Source: a virus (lineage: Duplodnaviria > Caudoviricetes). Taken from it: a stretch of DNA of 64,000 bases. Both the position numbers and the translations under genes were made by a program. Under the pieces are notes generated by a model. That model did not search any database and was not told where the DNA came from. It was given only the letters and a program-made list of their open reading frames with translations. Numbering within the stretch: position 1 is the stretch's first letter; every line of letters starts with the position of its first letter. Below are positions 1-8,189 of the stretch, piece after piece. Where the stretch lies: IMG/VR virus record IMGVR_UViG_3300027847_001698; one strand, written 5' to 3'.

Positions 1-238
1 CTGAATAATCTAATATTATATCTTTGAATGCATTCTGTGCGTCTGTAAAAATTATATTCTTGTCATGATTTAGATCGCCAAGAATATCAATATTTTTTAT
101 CTTCTCTTTTCGTGCGTAATCACAAACCTTTCTTATCAATGAAATAAGATCGCTTAATCTTTTAGGTAGTCCATCTTCTTGGATATTAGAATCTCTATAC
201 CAAGACAGATGTAAATCCGCTAAGGCAATTCTTTTCAT
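1..238 (-). CDS. Mre11/SbcD (T4 gp47-like) metallophosphoesterase nuclease, N-terminal part; runs off the window edge
   Basis: Not in the ORF track; translated by hand from ATG at 238: MKRIALADLHLSWYRD...IDILGDLNHDK, with the calcineurin-like motifs DxH and GDxxH. AGGAG lies upstream (256-260). Confidence 0.75.
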   Translation of the reverse strand, partial: MKRIALADLHLSWYRDSNIQEDGLPKRLSDLISLIRKVCDYARKEKIKNIDILGDLNHDKNIIFTDAQNAFKDIILDYS

Positions 239-294
239 AATCTAAAAAATTTAAACTCCTTTTTGTTTATTCTAAAAGTCGTACAATCTTATCT

Positions 295-1161
295 TTACAA
301 CAGTGTTAGAATCTCAGTGTCATCGTCATCATCTGCACCGTGTTGTATTCCCGCAGAATTTACAGCCTCTTCTTGGCTAATGACATCATGATCCATCAAT
401 AATACATAATCTTGCAAACAAGCACTTCCATCTTCCATTGATTCCATTGCTTGTTCTAATCTTTCTCTCAACATATCAGCGGGATCTACAATAGGAATGT
501 TCATTCCTAGAAAATCTTCACGGTTTCCTACCATTCCTGTCTGATGCTTTACTTGGCCATGGGAATTATAGTTATAATGTCCAGTATGAACAACTGCTTT
601 TTGTTGATAGACCTTTTTACTAACTTTCTCAAGATCAAGATCAAACTTTTTAGTATTTATAATATTAATATCCAACGGTAGTTGAATTCTACCAACTGGA
701 CTATTAATATTAATTATACCTGAATGAATAATTCTATTCACAAACAATAGAGAAAATTCATGATTAACATTGATATACTCATCATCGGTGCCTGAGAATT
801 TTGTACAACCAGAAGGATGTCTATGAATTACTCCATTGAACCCCGCTGGTGCTTCTTCTTTAAAATCTATAGTTGCAGCAGTTACTTCTTGTTCAGGAAG
901 CATCCACTTATTTTCCAGCATTAATATGCCATCGACAACCTTACCCTTTAAATACAATGCAAATTCAACAGAAGAATCTGGAAGATCATATTGGATTTGT
1001 AACATGACTTCCTGTAAATCACTTGGAATTACGACATCTACACTGTTGATTATTTGTAGAGCAGGATTTTCATTTTTCCAAACTACTTCCCCCGAACTCT
1101 TTTTTATTTTCATGTCTGCTTTAGACGTATCTACTGATTCATCCTTTATGGTCGTTAGCAT
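295..1161 (-). CDS. JAB/JAMM (MPN+) metallo-isopeptidase
   Basis: H113-R-H115-P-x6-S123-x2-D126 (HRHPSGCTKFSGTD) has canonical JAMM spacing; upstream EFALYL and PEQEVT motifs are typical of prokaryotic JAB proteins; acidic C-terminal tail. Confidence 0.85.
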   Translation of the reverse strand: MLTTIKDESVDTSKADMKIKKSSGEVVWKNENPALQIINSVDVVIPSDLQEVMLQIQYDLPDSSVEFALYLKGKVVDGILMLENKWMLPEQEVTAATIDFKEEAPAGFNGVIHRHPSGCTKFSGTDDEYINVNHEFSLLFVNRIIHSGIININSPVGRIQLPLDINIINTKKFDLDLEKVSKKVYQQKAVVHTGHYNYNSHGQVKHQTGMVGNREDFLGMNIPIVDPADMLRERLEQAMESMEDGSACLQDYVLLMDHDVISQEEAVNSAGIQHGADDDDDTEILTLL

Positions 1162-1909
1162 TGTACACTTCCTCTGTTACCGGTTGTTGATCTACATTCT
1201 GGCCCAAATAAATTCCTTCTAATAATCGTCCTGTATCAAATGTTATAAGTTTATTAAATAAGTTATCTTTATCATTGCATGAAAAACTTCCATCGTCAAT
1301 TAATGAGTATTTTGGCATTAGAATGTGATTACATACCAAATTTGCAACTAATTGAGCAGAGCAAACAAAAGAAGGAACTATATCATAATTCCCCCGTGCA
1401 CTCGTACCCATTACAGTTGTATGTCTTGGATTTCCGTCTATTGTAACAGACAATCCATCATAACCTAATTTCCAAACCTTTGTATGTTCTGAAAACTGCT
1501 TTATATCTTTAAAGATATTATCTCTACAATCTATAACTACCTCTGGGTAACTCCCCTTCCCCTTAAGTACTTCCAATGAGTTTTCATCATACTTTTCATT
1601 ATATATAACTATATCAATATCAATTCTTCTTTCAAGGATAAGCTCTAATACTACATCTGTTTTATTTCTTCCAATATCACATATTCTAAATAACGTTCTA
1701 TTCAGATTAGTATTTTCAATTGTATCCGAATCGTACATAACTAGTTTCTTAATTTGGCCAGTTAACGCCAAATTAAGAGCAACCCATGAACCTATTCCGC
1801 CAAGTCCAATTACTAGTGCACAATTATATTCTCTAAGATTTAATGATCGTTGTCTGTCACGTACTTCTTCTCCCCGATCATTAACTATATTATAAATTGA
1901 TTGTGTCAT
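1139..1909 (-). CDS. ThiF/MoeB/E1-like adenylating enzyme
   Basis: Rossmann motif VIGLGGIG, then YDSDTIENTNLNR, GRNKT and VIDCRD. No CxxC zinc motifs seen. Confidence 0.9.
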   Translation of the reverse strand: MTQSIYNIVNDRGEEVRDRQRSLNLREYNCALVIGLGGIGSWVALNLALTGQIKKLVMYDSDTIENTNLNRTLFRICDIGRNKTDVVLELILERRIDIDIVIYNEKYDENSLEVLKGKGSYPEVVIDCRDNIFKDIKQFSEHTKVWKLGYDGLSVTIDGNPRHTTVMGTSARGNYDIVPSFVCSAQLVANLVCNHILMPKYSLIDDGSFSCNDKDNLFNKLITFDTGRLLEGIYLGQNVDQQPVTEEVYNANDHKG

Positions 1910-1915
1910 TATAAA

Positions 1916-4039
1916 TCACTCGTTTGTTGAGTTTGTTGAATATCTAATGTCCGGTGAATTATCTATATATTGTATACAATCTGACGCGGATACTATTTTA
2001 TCCTTTATATTCTTATATGCCTCCTTTTCCCAATCTTTAGGTATTATGTCAGATTCTTTAGTCTTCTTTTTGGGTGGAGTTAATAACAATCCAAACTTTT
2101 TCCTTACTGTTTCTGAGAGAAATCCCCATGCCCTACAAATGACATCTCCACCTAATAATGAAAGATTCATGATCACCTTTTCAAAAGTTTCAGGATCATT
2201 AAAAAGCATTGGTCGGGTATATGAATTTTTACAATAGAAATATAAAGGTTTATCACTATCGTGGGAACCATCAGGCAAAAATACACCTATAACAGTTACA
2301 CCATTAGGATGTACCCAAGTTAATCTTCTATCAGAGTTTAAGATGAAAGATGATGAAACAGTTTCGGCATTACGCATTTGATCTAAAATTCGTATATATA
2401 CAGATAATTCTTCAACATCAATTTTATCATCTATAGCCTCTTTAATTACGTCTACATCTATTAATTTGCCGTCCTTAATAATTTCAACTTCATCTTTTCC
2501 ATTTATTGTTCTTGAGGGAGACAGCCCTCTATTATCATCCTTTTCATCATCTATTATTAAATCTCCTGCACCAATAGCAATCATTTTAGATTTAGATGAT
2601 TTTTTAGATACTTTAAGAAATTCTGATTCTGATTTGCATTTAACCTTTAATATTTTGTGATAATACGATTCATTATAAGCACTATCATAATTTAGAATCT
2701 GTAATAACGATTCCATTTTTATTAAATGCTCTTCAATTTTTTCCGTGGGTCCAGAAAATTTAATATTTCCTAAATCACCTAAGCATACTGAACCATCAGA
2801 AGATACATTTGGATGGGTGGATTCTGTAAAAGAAAATCCATCTCCATTAATATATAACCATTTTACTCTAAACATTCTTAACTCTTTAGGAATTATTTTA
2901 CAAACACCATCTCTAAAAAATCGATCAGGTAATATATCTATCTTCTTTTTCCATAACAAATTAGATCTATAATTACTACTAAATCGTTCATGGGTAGCTA
3001 CTTCCCATCCATATTTAGTTAACAGACCAGATATAGTCAATCCTCTATGAAACGATTGTTGTGAGCTGTCTCGATTTTCATTTGAAGCTCGTTCTAATAC
3101 TTTGGTTAATAAACTTGCATATATTTCAGATTTCCCTGATTGATAGATTGTGTCCCACTCTGCGGTAGCCATAGTGCGTTTTAATTCTTTCAAAATCCCT
3201 TCGGAATCTAAAGTAAAGTCTGCATCTGATGGGGAATATTTACATTCCTCTAATCTCTTTATAAGTTTACATATAGATTCATCTTTTCCGTCAGCTTCCC
3301 AATGTTTAATATCTATATCATGAAGTCTATTATGAACGAATGTAATTCGATCAAGAATGTTTTCTAGTAATACATTAACCTTTTCTACATCTCTTGATCG
3401 TCCACTTCTCATCAAATATCTTAATACTGGCCATTTTATATAAGTGGTTCCATCCACACACATAAACCCAACTAAAACTGAATTAGTTCCAACAAAGAAG
3501 ACCTCTGATACTAAACTATCTTTGACATCACAAATATCTTGTAATAATCTTGAATTTACAACTGAAGTAAGATTTGCAAATCCTGGATTTCTAAATCTCA
3601 TATTTGGACATATATTGACACATAATTTTCTAAATGTTACATCGGAATCATTTAAAGGAGTTCCTAAATATTTAGAAAATGACGTAGCCATACTTGCATG
3701 TGAAACTCTAGGATTACATGTAATATATTTTAAAAGATCACTAAGTCCAAAGTTTGTTATAACTAACTTGTGATTCATCTTTAATGACTTACCATATTCA
3801 TCCAAGGTTAGCTGTTCGTCATAAACTAGACTATATGAATTCAACCTATGGGTGTCACCTGGATCGTCAGATATGACATCTCTTACTACTACATTATTTA
3901 CCAAATCTAAATATTTATCATTTACCAAAAGTTTAGAAAGACATTTATTTAGCTTTTCTATAAATCTTCGTTCAAATGTATAATCTCTATGGTTATCTGG
4001 GGTAAACAAACGAGAAAGGGTTTCTTGTGTTCTGCTCAT
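1916..4039 (-). CDS. Large protein with a central prokaryotic E2 (UBC-like) domain
   Basis: STHPNVSSDGSVCLGDL (H409-P-N411, C419) matches the E2 signature HPN-x7-C (compare YHPNINSNGSICLDIL of Ubc4/5). Adjacent to E1 and JAB genes. Confidence 0.7.
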   Translation of the reverse strand: MSRTQETLSRLFTPDNHRDYTFERRFIEKLNKCLSKLLVNDKYLDLVNNVVVRDVISDDPGDTHRLNSYSLVYDEQLTLDEYGKSLKMNHKLVITNFGLSDLLKYITCNPRVSHASMATSFSKYLGTPLNDSDVTFRKLCVNICPNMRFRNPGFANLTSVVNSRLLQDICDVKDSLVSEVFFVGTNSVLVGFMCVDGTTYIKWPVLRYLMRSGRSRDVEKVNVLLENILDRITFVHNRLHDIDIKHWEADGKDESICKLIKRLEECKYSPSDADFTLDSEGILKELKRTMATAEWDTIYQSGKSEIYASLLTKVLERASNENRDSSQQSFHRGLTISGLLTKYGWEVATHERFSSNYRSNLLWKKKIDILPDRFFRDGVCKIIPKELRMFRVKWLYINGDGFSFTESTHPNVSSDGSVCLGDLGNIKFSGPTEKIEEHLIKMESLLQILNYDSAYNESYYHKILKVKCKSESEFLKVSKKSSKSKMIAIGAGDLIIDDEKDDNRGLSPSRTINGKDEVEIIKDGKLIDVDVIKEAIDDKIDVEELSVYIRILDQMRNAETVSSSFILNSDRRLTWVHPNGVTVIGVFLPDGSHDSDKPLYFYCKNSYTRPMLFNDPETFEKVIMNLSLLGGDVICRAWGFLSETVRKKFGLLLTPPKKKTKESDIIPKDWEKEAYKNIKDKIVSASDCIQYIDNSPDIRYSTNSTNE

Positions 4040-4046
4040 ATTAAAT

Positions 4047-4080
4047 AAAAAAGGTGGCTAGAGATTTATCCCTAACCACC
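4047..4080 (-). terminator. Intrinsic terminator-like hairpin between the Ubl-like gene and the E2-like gene
   Basis: Minus strand reads GGTGGTTAGGGAT-AA-ATCTCTAGCCACC followed by TTTTTT. Confidence 0.65.
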
Positions 4081-4101
4081 CTCCTCTATTTATATAATTG
4101 C

Positions 4102-4710
4102 TTACGCAGCTTTATTTACTTTGCCGACTTTCAACGAAAGAATACGACCTTCACCCAGAACGATATCAGTCTTACCGGAAATGTCGGTATTAGTTTTGAC
4201 ATCAGAAACAGCAAACGAGGCCATTCCTTGTTCAGTGGCATAAGTACTAATCGCGGAGAGGGTGTCATTTGCGTCCTCAACCTTGAACTTTGGTTCGCCG
4301 TTGATTACCAAAAGATACGCACCGTCAGCGAGAGACACCTTATAACCTTTCGGAAATGCCTTGTTTGGCGGGCAGTGAACATGAACACGTCCACTCTTTT
4401 TCTTTGCTGTAAACCCAGACAATGTATCAGCAGTCAATGAAGCAGGAGAACCAACCTTGACCATGGGCTTCTTAGATGCTTTGATAGTTGTCACTCCGCT
4501 GGTTCCACTTCCTGCAGAATACGTCACAAATCGACCACCATTATAAACAGAAAGCGTTCCATTTTCTACTAATGTGGTCAGTTCTTCCTTCAGCGATGCT
4601 GATGCCTTTGATGTAAAAAGTACATCCTTGGATATTCTGGTTGCGGTTGAGTTTTCGTTTTTCTTGACATACAACACGACTTTATTACTTACACTTTTTG
4701 TTAGTGACAT
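4102..4710 (-). CDS. Putative winged-helix + ubiquitin-like (beta-grasp) fusion protein
   Basis: aa ~6-66 have a wHTH pattern (helix-helix-helix ending LVENGTL, then a beta wing); a Lys/Ser-rich linker follows; aa ~131-202 have a beta-beta-alpha-beta-beta-beta pattern ending in an exposed small-residue tail KVNKAA. Directly upstream of E2-E1-JAB and visibly more GC-rich than its neighbours. Confidence 0.55.
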   Translation of the reverse strand: MSLTKSVSNKVVLYVKKNENSTATRISKDVLFTSKASASLKEELTTLVENGTLSVYNGGRFVTYSAGSGTSGVTTIKASKKPMVKVGSPASLTADTLSGFTAKKKSGRVHVHCPPNKAFPKGYKVSLADGAYLLVINGEPKFKVEDANDTLSAISTYATEQGMASFAVSDVKTNTDISGKTDIVLGEGRILSLKVGKVNKAA

Positions 4711-4744
4711 AAGGGTATAATTCCTTGGTTAAAAATAAAGAATC

Positions 4745-6166
4745 CTATTTTAATATCTTTTCTTCTATTTGCCAATTCTTTTCTGTATAGAATCCAATCC
4801 GGTACTTTGCCCGATTGATCAAATTATCATCTCCTATATCGACTAAATCTATTACGACTGGTTGTTGTTTATCTGGATGAGATCTAACAACCCGCCCAAC
4901 AGCCTGTTCTAAATTAGAAACAGGAGTAGCCAATATTAAACAATCTAATATTTCTTTATTAGTACCGTCTCTAGCACTTCCATAAGTACTAAAAACTAAT
5001 CTACGCTGTAGATGAGCATCACGCTCATTCTTCGATCTTGGGATGAAGAAACCTACTTCTTCTTTGTTTTTACATGCCTGCGAGGCATGATCTAAAATTT
5101 TAATTCTATCTGCCAAAAATAATAAGTGTCTGGTCGACTTAGACACTTCCATGACCAATTTTTTTATAGCTTTTTTATACGGCTCGGACTTGACTAACAA
5201 ACTCAAATATCTAGCCGTGTCAAAAAACGGTTTAATATTGTTATCCCGATCGTACTTTGTAAGATGTGTAATGTAATTTTTATGATTTTTCATAACACCA
5301 TGATCAAATTTCAATAAGATCACTTTCGGTGCCATAGTGTCTATACCCGAGGAAACCGGTACGTATACCTGTCCAAGATGTTTATATATTATATCTGTAT
5401 TTCCATCTAATCTACTTGGAGTAGCAGACAAACCATAGATTCGTTTAGATGGAATCCAAATCGAAGTTCTAGAAAACTGTTCAGCACTTACCGAAGTATG
5501 ACATTCATCCCATATAGCAATTCCAATTTGTGCATCATTCAATACCTTCTTCATTAGTTCGGGGGGCTTCCGCTTAACCAAACTACAAAATGTTTGAACA
5601 GTTGTGATTATTATATCCTTTTGCAAATCTTCCTCAAATGAAGAAGACCTAAGCCTAGAGATATTATCTTCCGATATATCTGTATGCTCTAAAAACTTAT
5701 CGACCCATTGACTAGCTAAAGAGTCCTTATGTACAAATATTATTGATTTTTTTCCAATTGTACATATCGAGTGGATGCTTACTACTGTCTTTCCTTCTCC
5801 AGGACTTAAACATAGTATACCATTAGTATTCGTTTCAAACCACTTGATCGACTCTTTCTGTCTTTCATTTCTTGGGACGACCTTGGAGGTTATACTTATA
5901 TCCTTCCCTACAATACTTCTATCTGTTATCTGAAACATTGCAGGGAGTTCATAAAAACGTGGAATCATTAATTCGCGAGTTGACTTATCTGTATCGTAAT
6001 ATTTTCTAATATCAACATTTGGAGCATCACTATCTGCCGTTTGTTGATATGACCTGGATTGTCTAGTCAAATCTCGAATTATTCTTGCAAACCATTCCTT
6101 GTCCTTATTGGAATCAACTGGAATTCGAATTGCAGAATCTTTTATGAGAGTTTGACTACATCCCAT
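4745..6166 (-). CDS. Superfamily 2 DNA helicase (UvsW/ResIII-like)
   Basis: Walker A LSPGEGKT, DECH, SATP, QAVGRVVR. Start placed at the ATG at 6166, which overlaps the queD stop; the track ORF extends to 6193. Confidence 0.85.
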   Translation of the reverse strand: MGCSQTLIKDSAIRIPVDSNKDKEWFARIIRDLTRQSRSYQQTADSDAPNVDIRKYYDTDKSTRELMIPRFYELPAMFQITDRSIVGKDISITSKVVPRNERQKESIKWFETNTNGILCLSPGEGKTVVSIHSICTIGKKSIIFVHKDSLASQWVDKFLEHTDISEDNISRLRSSSFEEDLQKDIIITTVQTFCSLVKRKPPELMKKVLNDAQIGIAIWDECHTSVSAEQFSRTSIWIPSKRIYGLSATPSRLDGNTDIIYKHLGQVYVPVSSGIDTMAPKVILLKFDHGVMKNHKNYITHLTKYDRDNNIKPFFDTARYLSLLVKSEPYKKAIKKLVMEVSKSTRHLLFLADRIKILDHASQACKNKEEVGFFIPRSKNERDAHLQRRLVFSTYGSARDGTNKEILDCLILATPVSNLEQAVGRVVRSHPDKQQPVVIDLVDIGDDNLINRAKYRIGFYTEKNWQIEEKILK

Positions 6167-6602
6167 ATTGCGCCCACGAATTAGGAGTTTCAAACAACTT
6201 TACATTGATTAATTCTAATCCTGAAGTTGGCGGTAAATTGTCGTTGACTTGTTCAAAGCACCACCTTGATAATTCTTCTGCTGTTGGGATAAATGGAACT
6301 TTTATAAGATTCCATGTGTCCTTAAATGGTTCAAACATTTCAGCTATCTCTTTGTCATTCTCGTAATAAATAAATCCATGATCTAATACATCATGTACAT
6401 ATGTTGTCATTACATCTTTCAAATCCCCAAAATCAATAACCATTCCTTGTTCAGATGAGCCTGATTCGCTATTTAGATATCCTGAAACTGTACATTCTAG
6501 TCTATATCTATGACCATGGGGATTTCTACATTTACTTTTATGATTAGGGACTCTGTGACCTGCATCAAATTCTATAATTTTAGTTATTCTAATCATCTTC
6601 AC
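6156..6602 (-). CDS. queD: 6-carboxy-5,6,7,8-tetrahydropterin synthase
   Basis: FDAGHR, CRNPHGHRY, VIDFGDLK, LDHG, PTAEEL and ETPNSWA are characteristic QueD/PTPS motifs. Confidence 0.92.
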   Translation of the reverse strand: MKMIRITKIIEFDAGHRVPNHKSKCRNPHGHRYRLECTVSGYLNSESGSSEQGMVIDFGDLKDVMTTYVHDVLDHGFIYYENDKEIAEMFEPFKDTWNLIKVPFIPTAEELSRWCFEQVNDNLPPTSGLELINVKLFETPNSWAQYGM

Positions 6603-6906
6603 TTTTTATTTGGTTTTTATTATTCTGTTCTTTTATTTTCTCTAATAAATCATCATACACAATAGCTAAATTGTCAGTTGGTAAAAAACACATACATTCA
6701 CTCTTCTTCCAAATGTATCTGTCATGTTTAGATGCTTTAACAAAAGCAGGAAATGATAACTCTAAATTATTATCAACGAATTTTACTTCTATTATATTAG
6801 TACATATATATTGATCAACATGTTCGTCTACGACTGTTACTATTAACGTCATTGCGCCATATTGAATTAAAATTACTTTTTTCATTTCAAATATTTCTCC
6901 TTCCAT
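6589..6906 (-). CDS. Hypothetical protein
   Basis: Fills the gap between topoisomerase A and queD with overlapping ends. Confidence 0.6.
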   Translation of the reverse strand: MEGEIFEMKKVILIQYGAMTLIVTVVDEHVDQYICTNIIEVKFVDNNLELSFPAFVKASKHDRYIWKKSECMCFLPTDNLAIVYDDLLEKIKEQNNKNQIKSEDD

Positions 6907-8189
6907 ATGTAATTAGAAAGATCAGCTAGATGAGATTCTACCTCACCCTTTAGTTGCCCAAGCCGCTGTGTATCAGTTGATATTTTAAACAGTCTAGCTA
7001 ATGTATACTTGTCAAACAAACCTTTTAGGATATCCTCAGAGCAAGAGATAGCGGACGATATGTTAGTTATCACCTTATCTAAATCATTTGGATTAGACTT
7101 CAATTCAATGCTCAAATGGGGTTTAATTTTGCCAATTAATGTTAGCTCATCTATTGCAACTTGGAACGCTTTGGTCTTTTTGATTAAATGATTTTTTACA
7201 ACATTAGTAAATACAGAATGAACATTCTTAAGCATTTGATCAATACTTACCAATATTACTTTTCCATCTGTATTACACATGTGACATTCATACGTCACAG
7301 ATCCAATCATCACATCATTCAATTTCTTCACAACTTGTTCAATCTTTAACATTCTAGGCTTTACTATCGTAAATCTAACCTTTGTAGATGTTCTTGATTC
7401 ATCCTGCCAACCAAGTGATTTATCAATAGTAATTTCCTTATTGAACTTTTTTAGAATTGCAGTAAATGTTTTCGATGGGGGGATAGATTCAATAACAACT
7501 GATTTGGTATCAATCTTTTTAAATTTCCCTTTGAATTCAAGTTTTGCTCTTCCTGTTGTGAGTAATGTTTCCAATTCTTCGTTACCTGATATAATCTTAC
7601 TAAGAGATATCGGTTTAATAATTGGCCCATCACCCTTTTTGTCATCTAAAATCCATTCTAATCGTTTTAATAAATCTTTTTGCTTAAAACTAGGAATTAA
7701 TGTTCTGTATCCAAATCCCATACCTTGACAATATGAATTTTGAGGTAATAGACAAATAGGAAACATTGTTGGCAAGAACACTGGCTCTTCTTCCATTTCC
7801 ACTTCATCATACGGAACATCTTTTATATATTCAAACGTCCTATCTAATATATCCTTTTGTAATTTTACTTCTGTGTATCTTTGTGCAGCAGGGGGATTCT
7901 GGTCAACTCCAATGTTATTACCCCAATTTCCTTGTCCTGTTGCAAATCCATTTTGTACAAGCCCAACCAATGACGAATAAGCTGATTCATCTCCATGTGG
8001 ATGATAGTGAGCAATACAATGCCCTACTATCTTGGCAGACTTTACAAAATTAGATTTGGCGACTTCATACAATGAGTACAATAGTCTCCTTTCAACTAAT
8101 TTAGCCCCATCCATAATAAACGGAAAAGATCTAAATTTGTTTATATATTGCCCATACTCAGCGTACAGATCTTTTATTATATCATCCAT
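6882..8189 (-). CDS. gyrA: Type IIA topoisomerase subunit A (GyrA/ParC/T4 gp52-like), lacking the C-terminal pinwheel domain
   Basis: DGAKLVERRLLY, KSAKIVG, YHPHGDES, GQGNWG and catalytic AAQRYTE. Only 435 aa. Confidence 0.92.
   Translation of the reverse strand: MDDIIKDLYAEYGQYINKFRSFPFIMDGAKLVERRLLYSLYEVAKSNFVKSAKIVGHCIAHYHPHGDESAYSSLVGLVQNGFATGQGNWGNNIGVDQNPPAAQRYTEVKLQKDILDRTFEYIKDVPYDEVEMEEEPVFLPTMFPICLLPQNSYCQGMGFGYRTLIPSFKQKDLLKRLEWILDDKKGDGPIIKPISLSKIISGNEELETLLTTGRAKLEFKGKFKKIDTKSVVIESIPPSKTFTAILKKFNKEITIDKSLGWQDESRTSTKVRFTIVKPRMLKIEQVVKKLNDVMIGSVTYECHMCNTDGKVILVSIDQMLKNVHSVFTNVVKNHLIKKTKAFQVAIDELTLIGKIKPHLSIELKSNPNDLDKVITNISSAISCSEDILKGLFDKYTLARLFKISTDTQRLGQLKGEVESHLADLSNYIWKEKYLK

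Follow-up and report, generated by a model that had tools for sequence, protein, structure and literature searches.

A 64,000-nt stretch of viral DNA, referred to here as the window (G000:C1:89369-153368 of the 193.5-kb IMG/VR virus record IMGVR_UViG_3300027847_001698), carries at positions 295-4710 a minus-strand module of four tightly packed, co-oriented open reading frames (ORFs) encoding a putative modifier protein (the tag), an E2 protein, an E1 enzyme and a JAB peptidase. We read this module, with a probability of about 0.7, as a phage-encoded ubiquitin-like conjugation system that belongs to the conserved core of an uncultured jumbo-phage clade. Sequence, predicted structures and genome comparisons all lend good support to the conjugation apparatus; the reactions at the tag's terminal alanine and the way from E1 to E2 are what we infer. 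The original prediction had claimed that this virus owns its modifier, E2, E1 and JAB eraser. All four ORFs were found where it had placed them, and the claim as a whole is supported by the domain identities, the embedding among phage core genes, the synteny and a tag tail with precursor-like extensions. Within the module the sole long gap (62 nt) separates the tag and E2 genes, 6 nt lie between the E2 stop and the E1 start, and the start of the JAB gene overlaps the E1 stop by 23 nt. Feature coordinates below are window positions on the minus strand unless another sequence is named.

The E2 gene (1916-4039), delimited by its ORF, homologues and conservation profile, encodes 707 amino acids: about 300 poorly conserved N-terminal residues, a ubiquitin-conjugating (UBC) catalytic core at residues 326-468 (2636-3064) and a variable C-terminal region. 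When 1.8 billion representatives were scanned in full with HMMER, 65 homologues (cluster representatives) of 126-780 amino acids were returned, most of them 400-780 amino acids long. In an alignment of 58 sequences the best-conserved part was the core (residues 300-470), which includes the HPN-x7-C motif from H409 to C419 (2783-2815); P410, N411, V418, C419, G421, L446, N450, D452 and S453 were invariant and H409 was present in 98%. Pfam UQ_con matched residues 405-465 with E 2.9e-4, below the gathering score. In the AlphaFold2 (AF2) model the predicted local distance difference test (pLDDT) exceeded 90 for most of residues 320-460, and residues 326-468 superposed on nearly whole UBC domains in VIA (Z 5.4-6.5, root-mean-square deviation (rmsd) 3.5-4 Å, 105-115 residues). 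All 50 top VIA rows were E2 or UEV proteins, including UBE2S, UbcH7 and Ubc13. The Z values themselves are modest; we assign the protein as an E2 because the structural matches are uniform and the motif is canonical. Searches with the E2 gave nothing in the ESM Atlas and nothing significant in BFVD, while the matches among AlphaFold database clusters were one protein without characterisation (E 1.7e-4) and entries named 'UBC core'. Word-indexed protein searches with the tag and with the E2 each returned only their own query. A second 'VHPN' string occurs at E2 residues 574-579 (2303-2320), and BLAST pairs it with the active site of the E2-like protein from a second enzyme set described below; it is not kept in the E2 family, where alignment occupancy beyond residue 580 is below 0.5.

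The E1 gene (1139-1909) encodes a minimal adenylating enzyme of the ThiF/MoeB type, 256 amino acids long, identified by Pfam, PDB matches and alignment. It consists of a single adenylation domain (Pfam ThiF, E 5e-22), and its ATP/Mg motifs (the Arg-Gln finger R19-Q20, GxGGIG, D60/D62 with the ribose Asp, N68-L-N-R71, K83 and D127-C-R-D130) do not vary among 12 orthologues, the set to which the statements on E1, JAB and tag conservation refer. Matches in the PDB were Uba1, MccB, NAE1 (the NEDD8 E1), ThiF and Cap2; no curated NCBIfam cut-off was reached. The sole invariant cysteine, C128, belongs to the DCRD motif, which aligns with the adenylation-domain core, and position 183 is variable. Two tyrosines, Y150 and Y175, are invariant.

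The last gene of the module (295-1161) encodes a JAMM/JAB metallopeptidase of 288 amino acids, recognised by alignment, Prok-JAB matches and the ESM Atlas. Its HxHx7Sx2D motif lies at 784-825 and its catalytic Glu66 at 964-966; E66, H113, H115, S123 and D126 are all invariant. Pfam Prok-JAB was weakly matched by 10 of the 12 orthologues (best E 5e-4). The window protein itself had no Pfam match, and a PDB profile search with it found none. In the ESM Atlas the feature score between the JAB and a viral Prok-JAB cluster was 0.97, and Rpn11/AMSH-type models were also matched. The catalytic features of all three enzymes named in the original prediction could be recovered: a modelled UBC fold with HPN-x7-C and C419 as numbered there, a ThiF/E1 adenylation domain with all nucleotide motifs intact, and a JAMM motif with H113 and D126 at the residue numbers given.

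The tag gene (4102-4710) encodes 202 amino acids, described here from its ORF, an AF2 model and the orthologues. The model, built from the 12 orthologous sequences, has a mean pLDDT of 77.5, with values of 80-91 across the C-terminal domain, and falls into three parts: a winged helix at residues 4-66 (4513-4701), a disordered Lys-rich linker at 69-96 and a C-terminal domain at 97-202. The C-terminal domain had been predicted to be beta-grasp-like and does model as a beta-grasp. Residues 132-197 follow the ubiquitin order b-b-a-b-b-3_10-b, and the core (residues 131-202; 4105-4320) was delimited by AF2 secondary structure and Foldseek matches. The best of these was the PB1 domain of NBR1 (prob 0.99, E 9e-3, rmsd 3.7 Å), and further matches were NLP PB1, the parkin Ubl (ubiquitin-like) domain, DWNN, the ELMO RBD and the bacterial Ubl 8tyx_A. 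The winged helix matched those of IclR, MarR, Z-alpha and cullin WHB (VIA Z 9.6-8.2), and matches of the tag by structure and by feature in the ESM Atlas were winged helix-turn-helix families; VIA-wide and Atlas shape searches with the full tag model had their rows filled by the winged helix alone. A PDB profile search with the tag likewise gave weak winged-helix matches only. Weak sequence matches of the winged helix to Hop2, Mnd1, RPA32 and the RecQ RQC domain (E 0.007-0.17), as well as matches to the ADAR Z-beta domain and BlaI, were also seen; these winged-helix matches are a lead only.

The tag ends in the conserved tail N199-K200-A201-A202 (4105-4116). Across the orthologues the end reads K-[H/V/I]-[N/D]-K-[A/G]-A, of which the form K-[H/V]-N-K-A-A is nearly invariant; K200 and A202 never vary, and N199 and A201 almost never do. 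In 5 of the 12 orthologues, 1-14 residues follow the Ala-Ala (A, A, M, TA and, in locus L017, a 14-mer); the window phage tag has no residues beyond N-K-A-A. A conserved Ubl end with variable overhangs, from which a JAB exposes the reactive end, has been reported for the BilA and BubA pre-proteins (PMC10557695; PMC11601596; bioRxiv 10.1101/2023.09.04.556158). By analogy with BilC and BubC, and from its motifs, the JAB would trim residues past N-K-A-A and later strip the tag from its targets.

Synteny of the module was assessed at 12 other loci, ten with E1 homologues (nine as DNA, the tenth as a gene table) and two from tag-alignment scans. The order tag (~200 amino acids), E2 (~500-780 amino acids), E1, JAB, Mre11 was kept in 11 of these 12 metagenomic loci, the single exception being L009, and Rad50 follows Mre11 wherever the syntenic contig extends far enough. 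The syntenic loci came from marine, lake, saline and gut samples, on contigs of up to 141 kb. More than 150 metagenomic E1 homologues were found, with 37-51% identity. Used as a query, the tag alignment brought up two loci in IMG/VR and one in JGI, and a helicase scan of IMG/VR yielded one distant locus; scans of IMG/VR with the E1 or E2 as single proteins found nothing.

The company that the E1 keeps bears on a different reading of its activity, in which it would adenylate a small protein for sulfur transfer (as with ThiS, MoaD or TtuB) or make an MccB-like peptide-nucleotide, for instance in nucleic-acid modification. A minimal ThiF/MoeB-type enzyme lacking a catalytic cysteine, with MccB, ThiF and MoeB among its top PDB and NCBIfam matches, would suit such a role. 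So would a QueD/PTPS (6-carboxy-tetrahydropterin synthase) gene two genes upstream at 6156-6602, where it overlaps the start of the helicase gene; QueD/PTPS stands at the equivalent position in L005, L006 and L015 and hints at 7-deazaguanine metabolism in the phage clade. However, in all 11 syntenic loci the E1 is accompanied by a JAMM peptidase and by an E2 whose HPN is near-invariant and whose cysteine is invariant, the tail of the tag ends in Ala-Ala and not in Gly-Gly, and the neighbourhoods in L007, L008, L010, L016 and L017 lack QueD. No rhodanese or cysteine desulfurase was seen among the module proteins or annotated neighbours, although no family search for them was run. We therefore regard activation without conjugation as improbable.

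The record itself is a genuine jumbo phage by its gene content and not a host defence island. The window contains two giant RNA-polymerase subunits, a family-B DNA polymerase, UvsX, ribonucleotide reductase, topoisomerase II and helicases, and elsewhere the record holds a Gp23-type (T4-type) major capsid gene (E 2e-31) and a terminase gene; the assignment to a phage follows from these core genes. The module is flanked upstream by a gene for a UvsW-like superfamily 2 helicase (4745-6193; Pfam ResIII, DEAD) and downstream by the 5' part of an Mre11/SbcD gene (2-238), which continues past the window, is followed by Rad50 and is present in full in L003. Both flanking genes had been named correctly in the original prediction. 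The same helicase neighbours the module at L005, L006, L014 and L015, and the Mre11 flank is kept in the 11 syntenic loci (Metallophos and AAA_23 neighbours). IMG/VR labels the record 'provirus' with a completeness of 61% (CheckV), and all parts that we examined were phage-like; relatives measure 141-230 kb. Because of the label the module might be host-owned, as part of a defence island or as mis-binned cellular DNA, and the completeness value and the existence of related E1-JAB operons in bacterial bins could be taken to agree. This reading is already contradicted and we give it almost no credence: phage core genes, including topoisomerase II, polymerases and Mre11/Rad50, lie on both sides for tens of kilobases, the capsid and terminase genes stand in the same record, and the same synteny recurs in other contigs of up to 141 kb. 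A blastn search of positions 1-6200 and a tblastn search with the E2 found no match among 50,697 deposited phage genomes. Many runs of seawater DNA, sequenced in different studies, contain the stretch in near-identical form.

Between the tag and E2 genes lies a terminator-like, GC-rich hairpin (4047-4086) of 18 pairs followed by a T run, with a folding energy of -27.9 kcal/mol (z -6.5). A hairpin of differing sequence was found at the same position after the tag gene in 10 of 10 loci tested (z -3.0 to -7.6). RNA contigs covered the tag gene in four of four seawater RNA libraries; in three of them they stopped shortly ahead of the hairpin (4103-4148), and those of the remaining library stopped at 4250. 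The 2.1-kb E2 gene yielded one 151-nt RNA piece inside it and another across its 3' end and the E1 start. This pattern fits an abundant tag transcript but is only suggestive, since expression cannot be ranked from contigs and DNA can be carried over into RNA libraries. The tag gene would be transcribed with the upstream helicase block and the conserved hairpin would attenuate read-through, so that a stoichiometric tag would outnumber the enzymes.

In addition to this limit on the RNA contigs, several observations weigh against a conjugation system. The E1 lacks the conserved catalytic, crossover-loop cysteine that canonical cascades need. Glycine has been called obligatory at the end of Ubls (bioRxiv 10.1101/2023.09.04.556158), and a terminal alanine is without precedent among the characterised Ubls of the literature consulted; the predicted mature end of the phage tag is not a glycine but the invariant A202, preceded by A or G. 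The beta-grasp call depends on an AF2 model of 12 sequences, with Foldseek E-values of only 0.009-0.13, and no sequence profile in our searches tied the C-terminal domain to any Ubl family; because of these weak E-values the beta-grasp is the least firmly shown part of the module. When the E1 and tag residues 97-202 were co-folded, the ipSAE was 0.59 (best control 0.00), with runs agreeing in at least 70% of contacts and a partner pLDDT of at least 83. Of 80 solved complexes 58 attained the co-fold mark, as did 2 of 110 mismatched pairs; with an ipSAE of 0.60 or under, only 7 of the 80 solved complexes attained it, together with both of the passing mismatches. The predicted E1-tag complex thus speaks for the conjugation reading, but only weakly.

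A second E1/E2 set is encoded in the same genome (L003:5697-7220; G000:C1 ~83.7-85.2 kb), ~4 kb upstream of the window and directly before the RNA-polymerase beta-prime gene. It comprises a 187-amino-acid E1-like protein lacking the NLNR motif, a 92-amino-acid ORF and a 233-amino-acid E2-like protein with HPN-x8-C. In profile comparisons the two enzymes were paralogues of the module E1 (E 4e-12) and E2 (E 1.5e-9), and the E2 match took in both the HPN..C and NxDxxY motifs. The 92-amino-acid protein ends in LTGTA; its family ends in P-x-T-[G/T]-x-A, with the terminal alanine invariant in 5 of 5 loci. The second set has no JAB of its own, the genome holding a single one. Kinship between the tag and the 92-amino-acid protein was also considered and was rejected, as neither BLAST nor hhalign gave a match.

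Among GTDB species genomes, the nearest relatives of the E1 were found in Ignavibacteria bins, on contigs of up to 742 kb. Four-gene operons occur there in L019, L021, L022 and L026 (~4400-7900 in each locus), in the order of a small protein of ~86 amino acids, an E2 of 265-319 amino acids with HPN..C, an E1 and a JAB. Against the phage profiles the E1 proteins scored 1e-45 to 1e-52 and the JAB proteins 1e-35 to 1e-42; the E2 shares the HPN..C and DSAY motifs with the phage E2 (hhalign E 1e-5). The ~86-amino-acid protein ends in R-F-N-V-A-A plus 0-1 residue and aligns co-linearly but weakly with the C-terminal domain of the phage tag (E 6e-3). Judged from sequence, the phage family thus has compact relatives among cellular genomes, with tags that likewise end in Asn-x-Ala-Ala; to this plan the phage version appears to have added a winged helix on the tag and, on the E2, ~300 N-terminal residues and a variable C-terminal region. 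We found neither a publication nor a family model for the Ignavibacteria operons. One to three paralogous genes of ~100 amino acids, starting MSNRYSFRVPY or MNKY..., precede the operon. Three-gene E1-E2-JAB sets were also found in archaeal bins of the Acidilobaceae/Desulfurococcales.

Of the systems compared with the phage module, the Ignavibacteria operons are closest by sequence, with the same four genes and the shared Asn-x-Ala-Ala tag end. They differ from the phage module in that the tag of ~86 amino acids has no winged helix, the E2 has no large extra regions, and the contigs that carry the operons belong to cellular genome bins. Characterised bacterial E1/E2/JAB systems, by comparison, act as anti-phage defence (PMC10557695; PMC11601596; bioRxiv 10.1101/2023.09.04.556158). 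Among these, the ISG15-like Bil system (BilABCD, types I and II) resembles the phage module in having a separate Ubl, an E2 with a catalytic cysteine, a JAB and an E1. It also has no E3, and the Bil E2 is thought to choose the targets; furthermore, some Bil Ubls have short C-terminal overhangs cut by the JAB, and Bil Ubls can have additional N-terminal domains (PMC10557695; bioRxiv 10.1101/2024.11.21.623966). In contrast, the Bil E1 is built as IAD-AAD-CYS (inactive adenylation, active adenylation and cysteine domains) whereas the phage E1 is one 256-amino-acid adenylation domain without a conserved cysteine, the Bil Ubl ends in an invariant glycine whereas the phage tag ends in an invariant alanine, and Bil belongs to bacterial defence islands whereas the phage module belongs to the phage core gene set. 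PADLOC and NCBIfam models gave no match for the tag, E2 or JAB, and the E1 gave partial matches to the CBASS E1-E2 (Cap2) models of PADLOC only (best E 7e-13).

The Bub system (6E/DUF6527) shares with the phage module a minimal adenylation-domain E1 without a crossover cysteine, homodimeric in Bub (PMC11601596). The Bub E1 uses an invariant crossover tyrosine, Y370 (PMC11601596), and Y150 and Y175 are the tyrosines that are invariant by alignment in the phage E1. In Bub the JAB processes the Ubl, as proposed for the phage JAB, and the Ubls carry varied N-terminal domains (PMC11601596). However, the Bub E2 has no cysteine and employs Ser/His oxyester chemistry, while HPN-x7-C is conserved throughout the phage family; Bub proteins are fused (Ubl-E2, JAB-E1 or E2-E1), while all phage proteins are separate; Bub includes a DUF6527 serine protease, while PF20137 is absent from the phage genome record; and Bub Ubls end in glycine. 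The type II CBASS pair Cap2/Cap3 likewise combines E1 and E2 chemistry with a JAB eraser, and the phage E1 matches the E1 domain of Cap2 in the PDB. Here the difference is that Cap2 joins an E2 and an E1 domain in one protein, each with a catalytic cysteine, the phage E2 and E1 being separate genes, and that the substrate of Cap2 is the C-terminus of a nucleotidyltransferase (CD-NTase) and not a beta-grasp tag. The annotated flanking genes included no CD-NTase, though no search aimed at CD-NTases was run. Within phages, the TAPI and TAPK JAB proteins of lambda and T1 also pair a beta-grasp protein with a JAB peptidase, but they stand in a tail-assembly context with no E1 or E2, and the beta-grasp ends in a conserved glycine (PMC1779556). 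In the literature that we searched we found no description of a complete phage-encoded set of tag, E2, E1 and JAB; the nearest report was of E1-like genes in viruses of Asgard archaea (bioRxiv 10.1101/2021.07.29.454249).

Within our reading of the module as a conjugation system, the minimal E1, probably a homodimer like ThiF and UBA5, would adenylate the carboxylate of the terminal Ala202; the motifs for this step are conserved. Since the E1 has no conserved cysteine, the tag may pass straight from the adenylate to Cys419 of the E2, or via a Bub-like tyrosine oxyester involving Y150 or Y175. Cys419 would then carry the tag as a thioester and pass it to lysines, and, as the module has no E3, the extensive parts of the E2 outside its catalytic core may serve as substrate selector. 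Each conjugate would bear a winged-helix domain. The module lies between the UvsW-like helicase and Mre11-Rad50, and the second set lies before an RNA-polymerase subunit gene; these positions suggest candidate targets among replication, recombination, transcription or host nucleoid proteins. The clamp and the recombination proteins that the original prediction had proposed as targets, like its alternative of a decoy, are speculative. Taken furthest, the jumbo-phage clade may run reversible Ubl signalling with two paralogous E1/E2 sets and Ala-ended tags, placing a winged-helix tag on phage or host proteins of replication, recombination or transcription and so reprogramming the cell, with a new chemistry in which a Cys-less E1 feeds a Cys E2. 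We hold this fuller picture tentatively, at somewhat less than even odds.

The same apparatus could instead neutralise host immunity, either by tagging host defence or nucleoid proteins or by stripping or out-competing Bil, Bub or CBASS conjugation. Such a role in counter-defence would accord with the anti-phage function of the characterised E1/E2/JAB systems (PMC10557695; PMC11601596; bioRxiv 10.1101/2023.09.04.556158) and with the frequent capture of host defence modules by phages. The closest cellular E1 and JAB relatives are the compact Ignavibacteria operons, and some of these have neighbours resembling ATPase or restriction-specificity genes, as judged from N-terminal peptides only, with no family search. 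Nevertheless, the module occupies a fixed place in the replication/recombination block throughout the clade and not a variable accessory region, and duplication has given it a second E1/E2 set next to RNA polymerase genes. The gain of ~300 N-terminal residues by the E2 and of a winged helix by the tag would moreover indicate dedicated, conserved targets. We consider counter-defence unlikely, and favour conjugation in the service of the phage's own programme.

The literature searched portrays prokaryotic Ubl conjugation (CBASS Cap2/3, Bil, Bub) as a means by which hosts fight phages. If a full set of writer, tag and eraser does belong to the fixed core genes of a widespread clade of phages, bacterial viruses would also use conjugation chemistry for their own programme, much as eukaryotic viruses exploit ubiquitin. 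Two supposed rules would be called into question, namely that a tag must end in glycine and that transfer from E1 to E2 needs an E1 cysteine. With Lys200 just before the terminal Ala-Ala, tryptic digestion would be expected to leave Ala-Ala attached to each modified lysine, a remnant that would serve as a proteomic handle for finding the targets.

Some further observations concern related loci. In the cultured Flavobacterium phage FpV4 (L018, KT876724.1 59145-69510), a ThiF gene is annotated as 'thiamine biosynthesis protein' and adjoins a gene for a 423-amino-acid protein with a weak Prok-JAB match. Two genes upstream, a 289-amino-acid protein looks ubiquitin-like in its first ~83 residues, ending ..KSGG before a long acidic extension. 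The neighbours of the FpV4 ThiF gene were tried as members of the phage E2 and JAB families and rejected, as they had no match to the phage E2 or JAB profiles; the FpV4 genes may represent another unannotated phage Ubl system. Upstream of the module, a ~125-amino-acid gene lies between helicase and tag in L006, L014 and L015, and in one branch of the clade (L007, L010, L016 and L017) the helicase is replaced by a DUF2786/DUF7168 protein of ~290 amino acids that precedes the tag.

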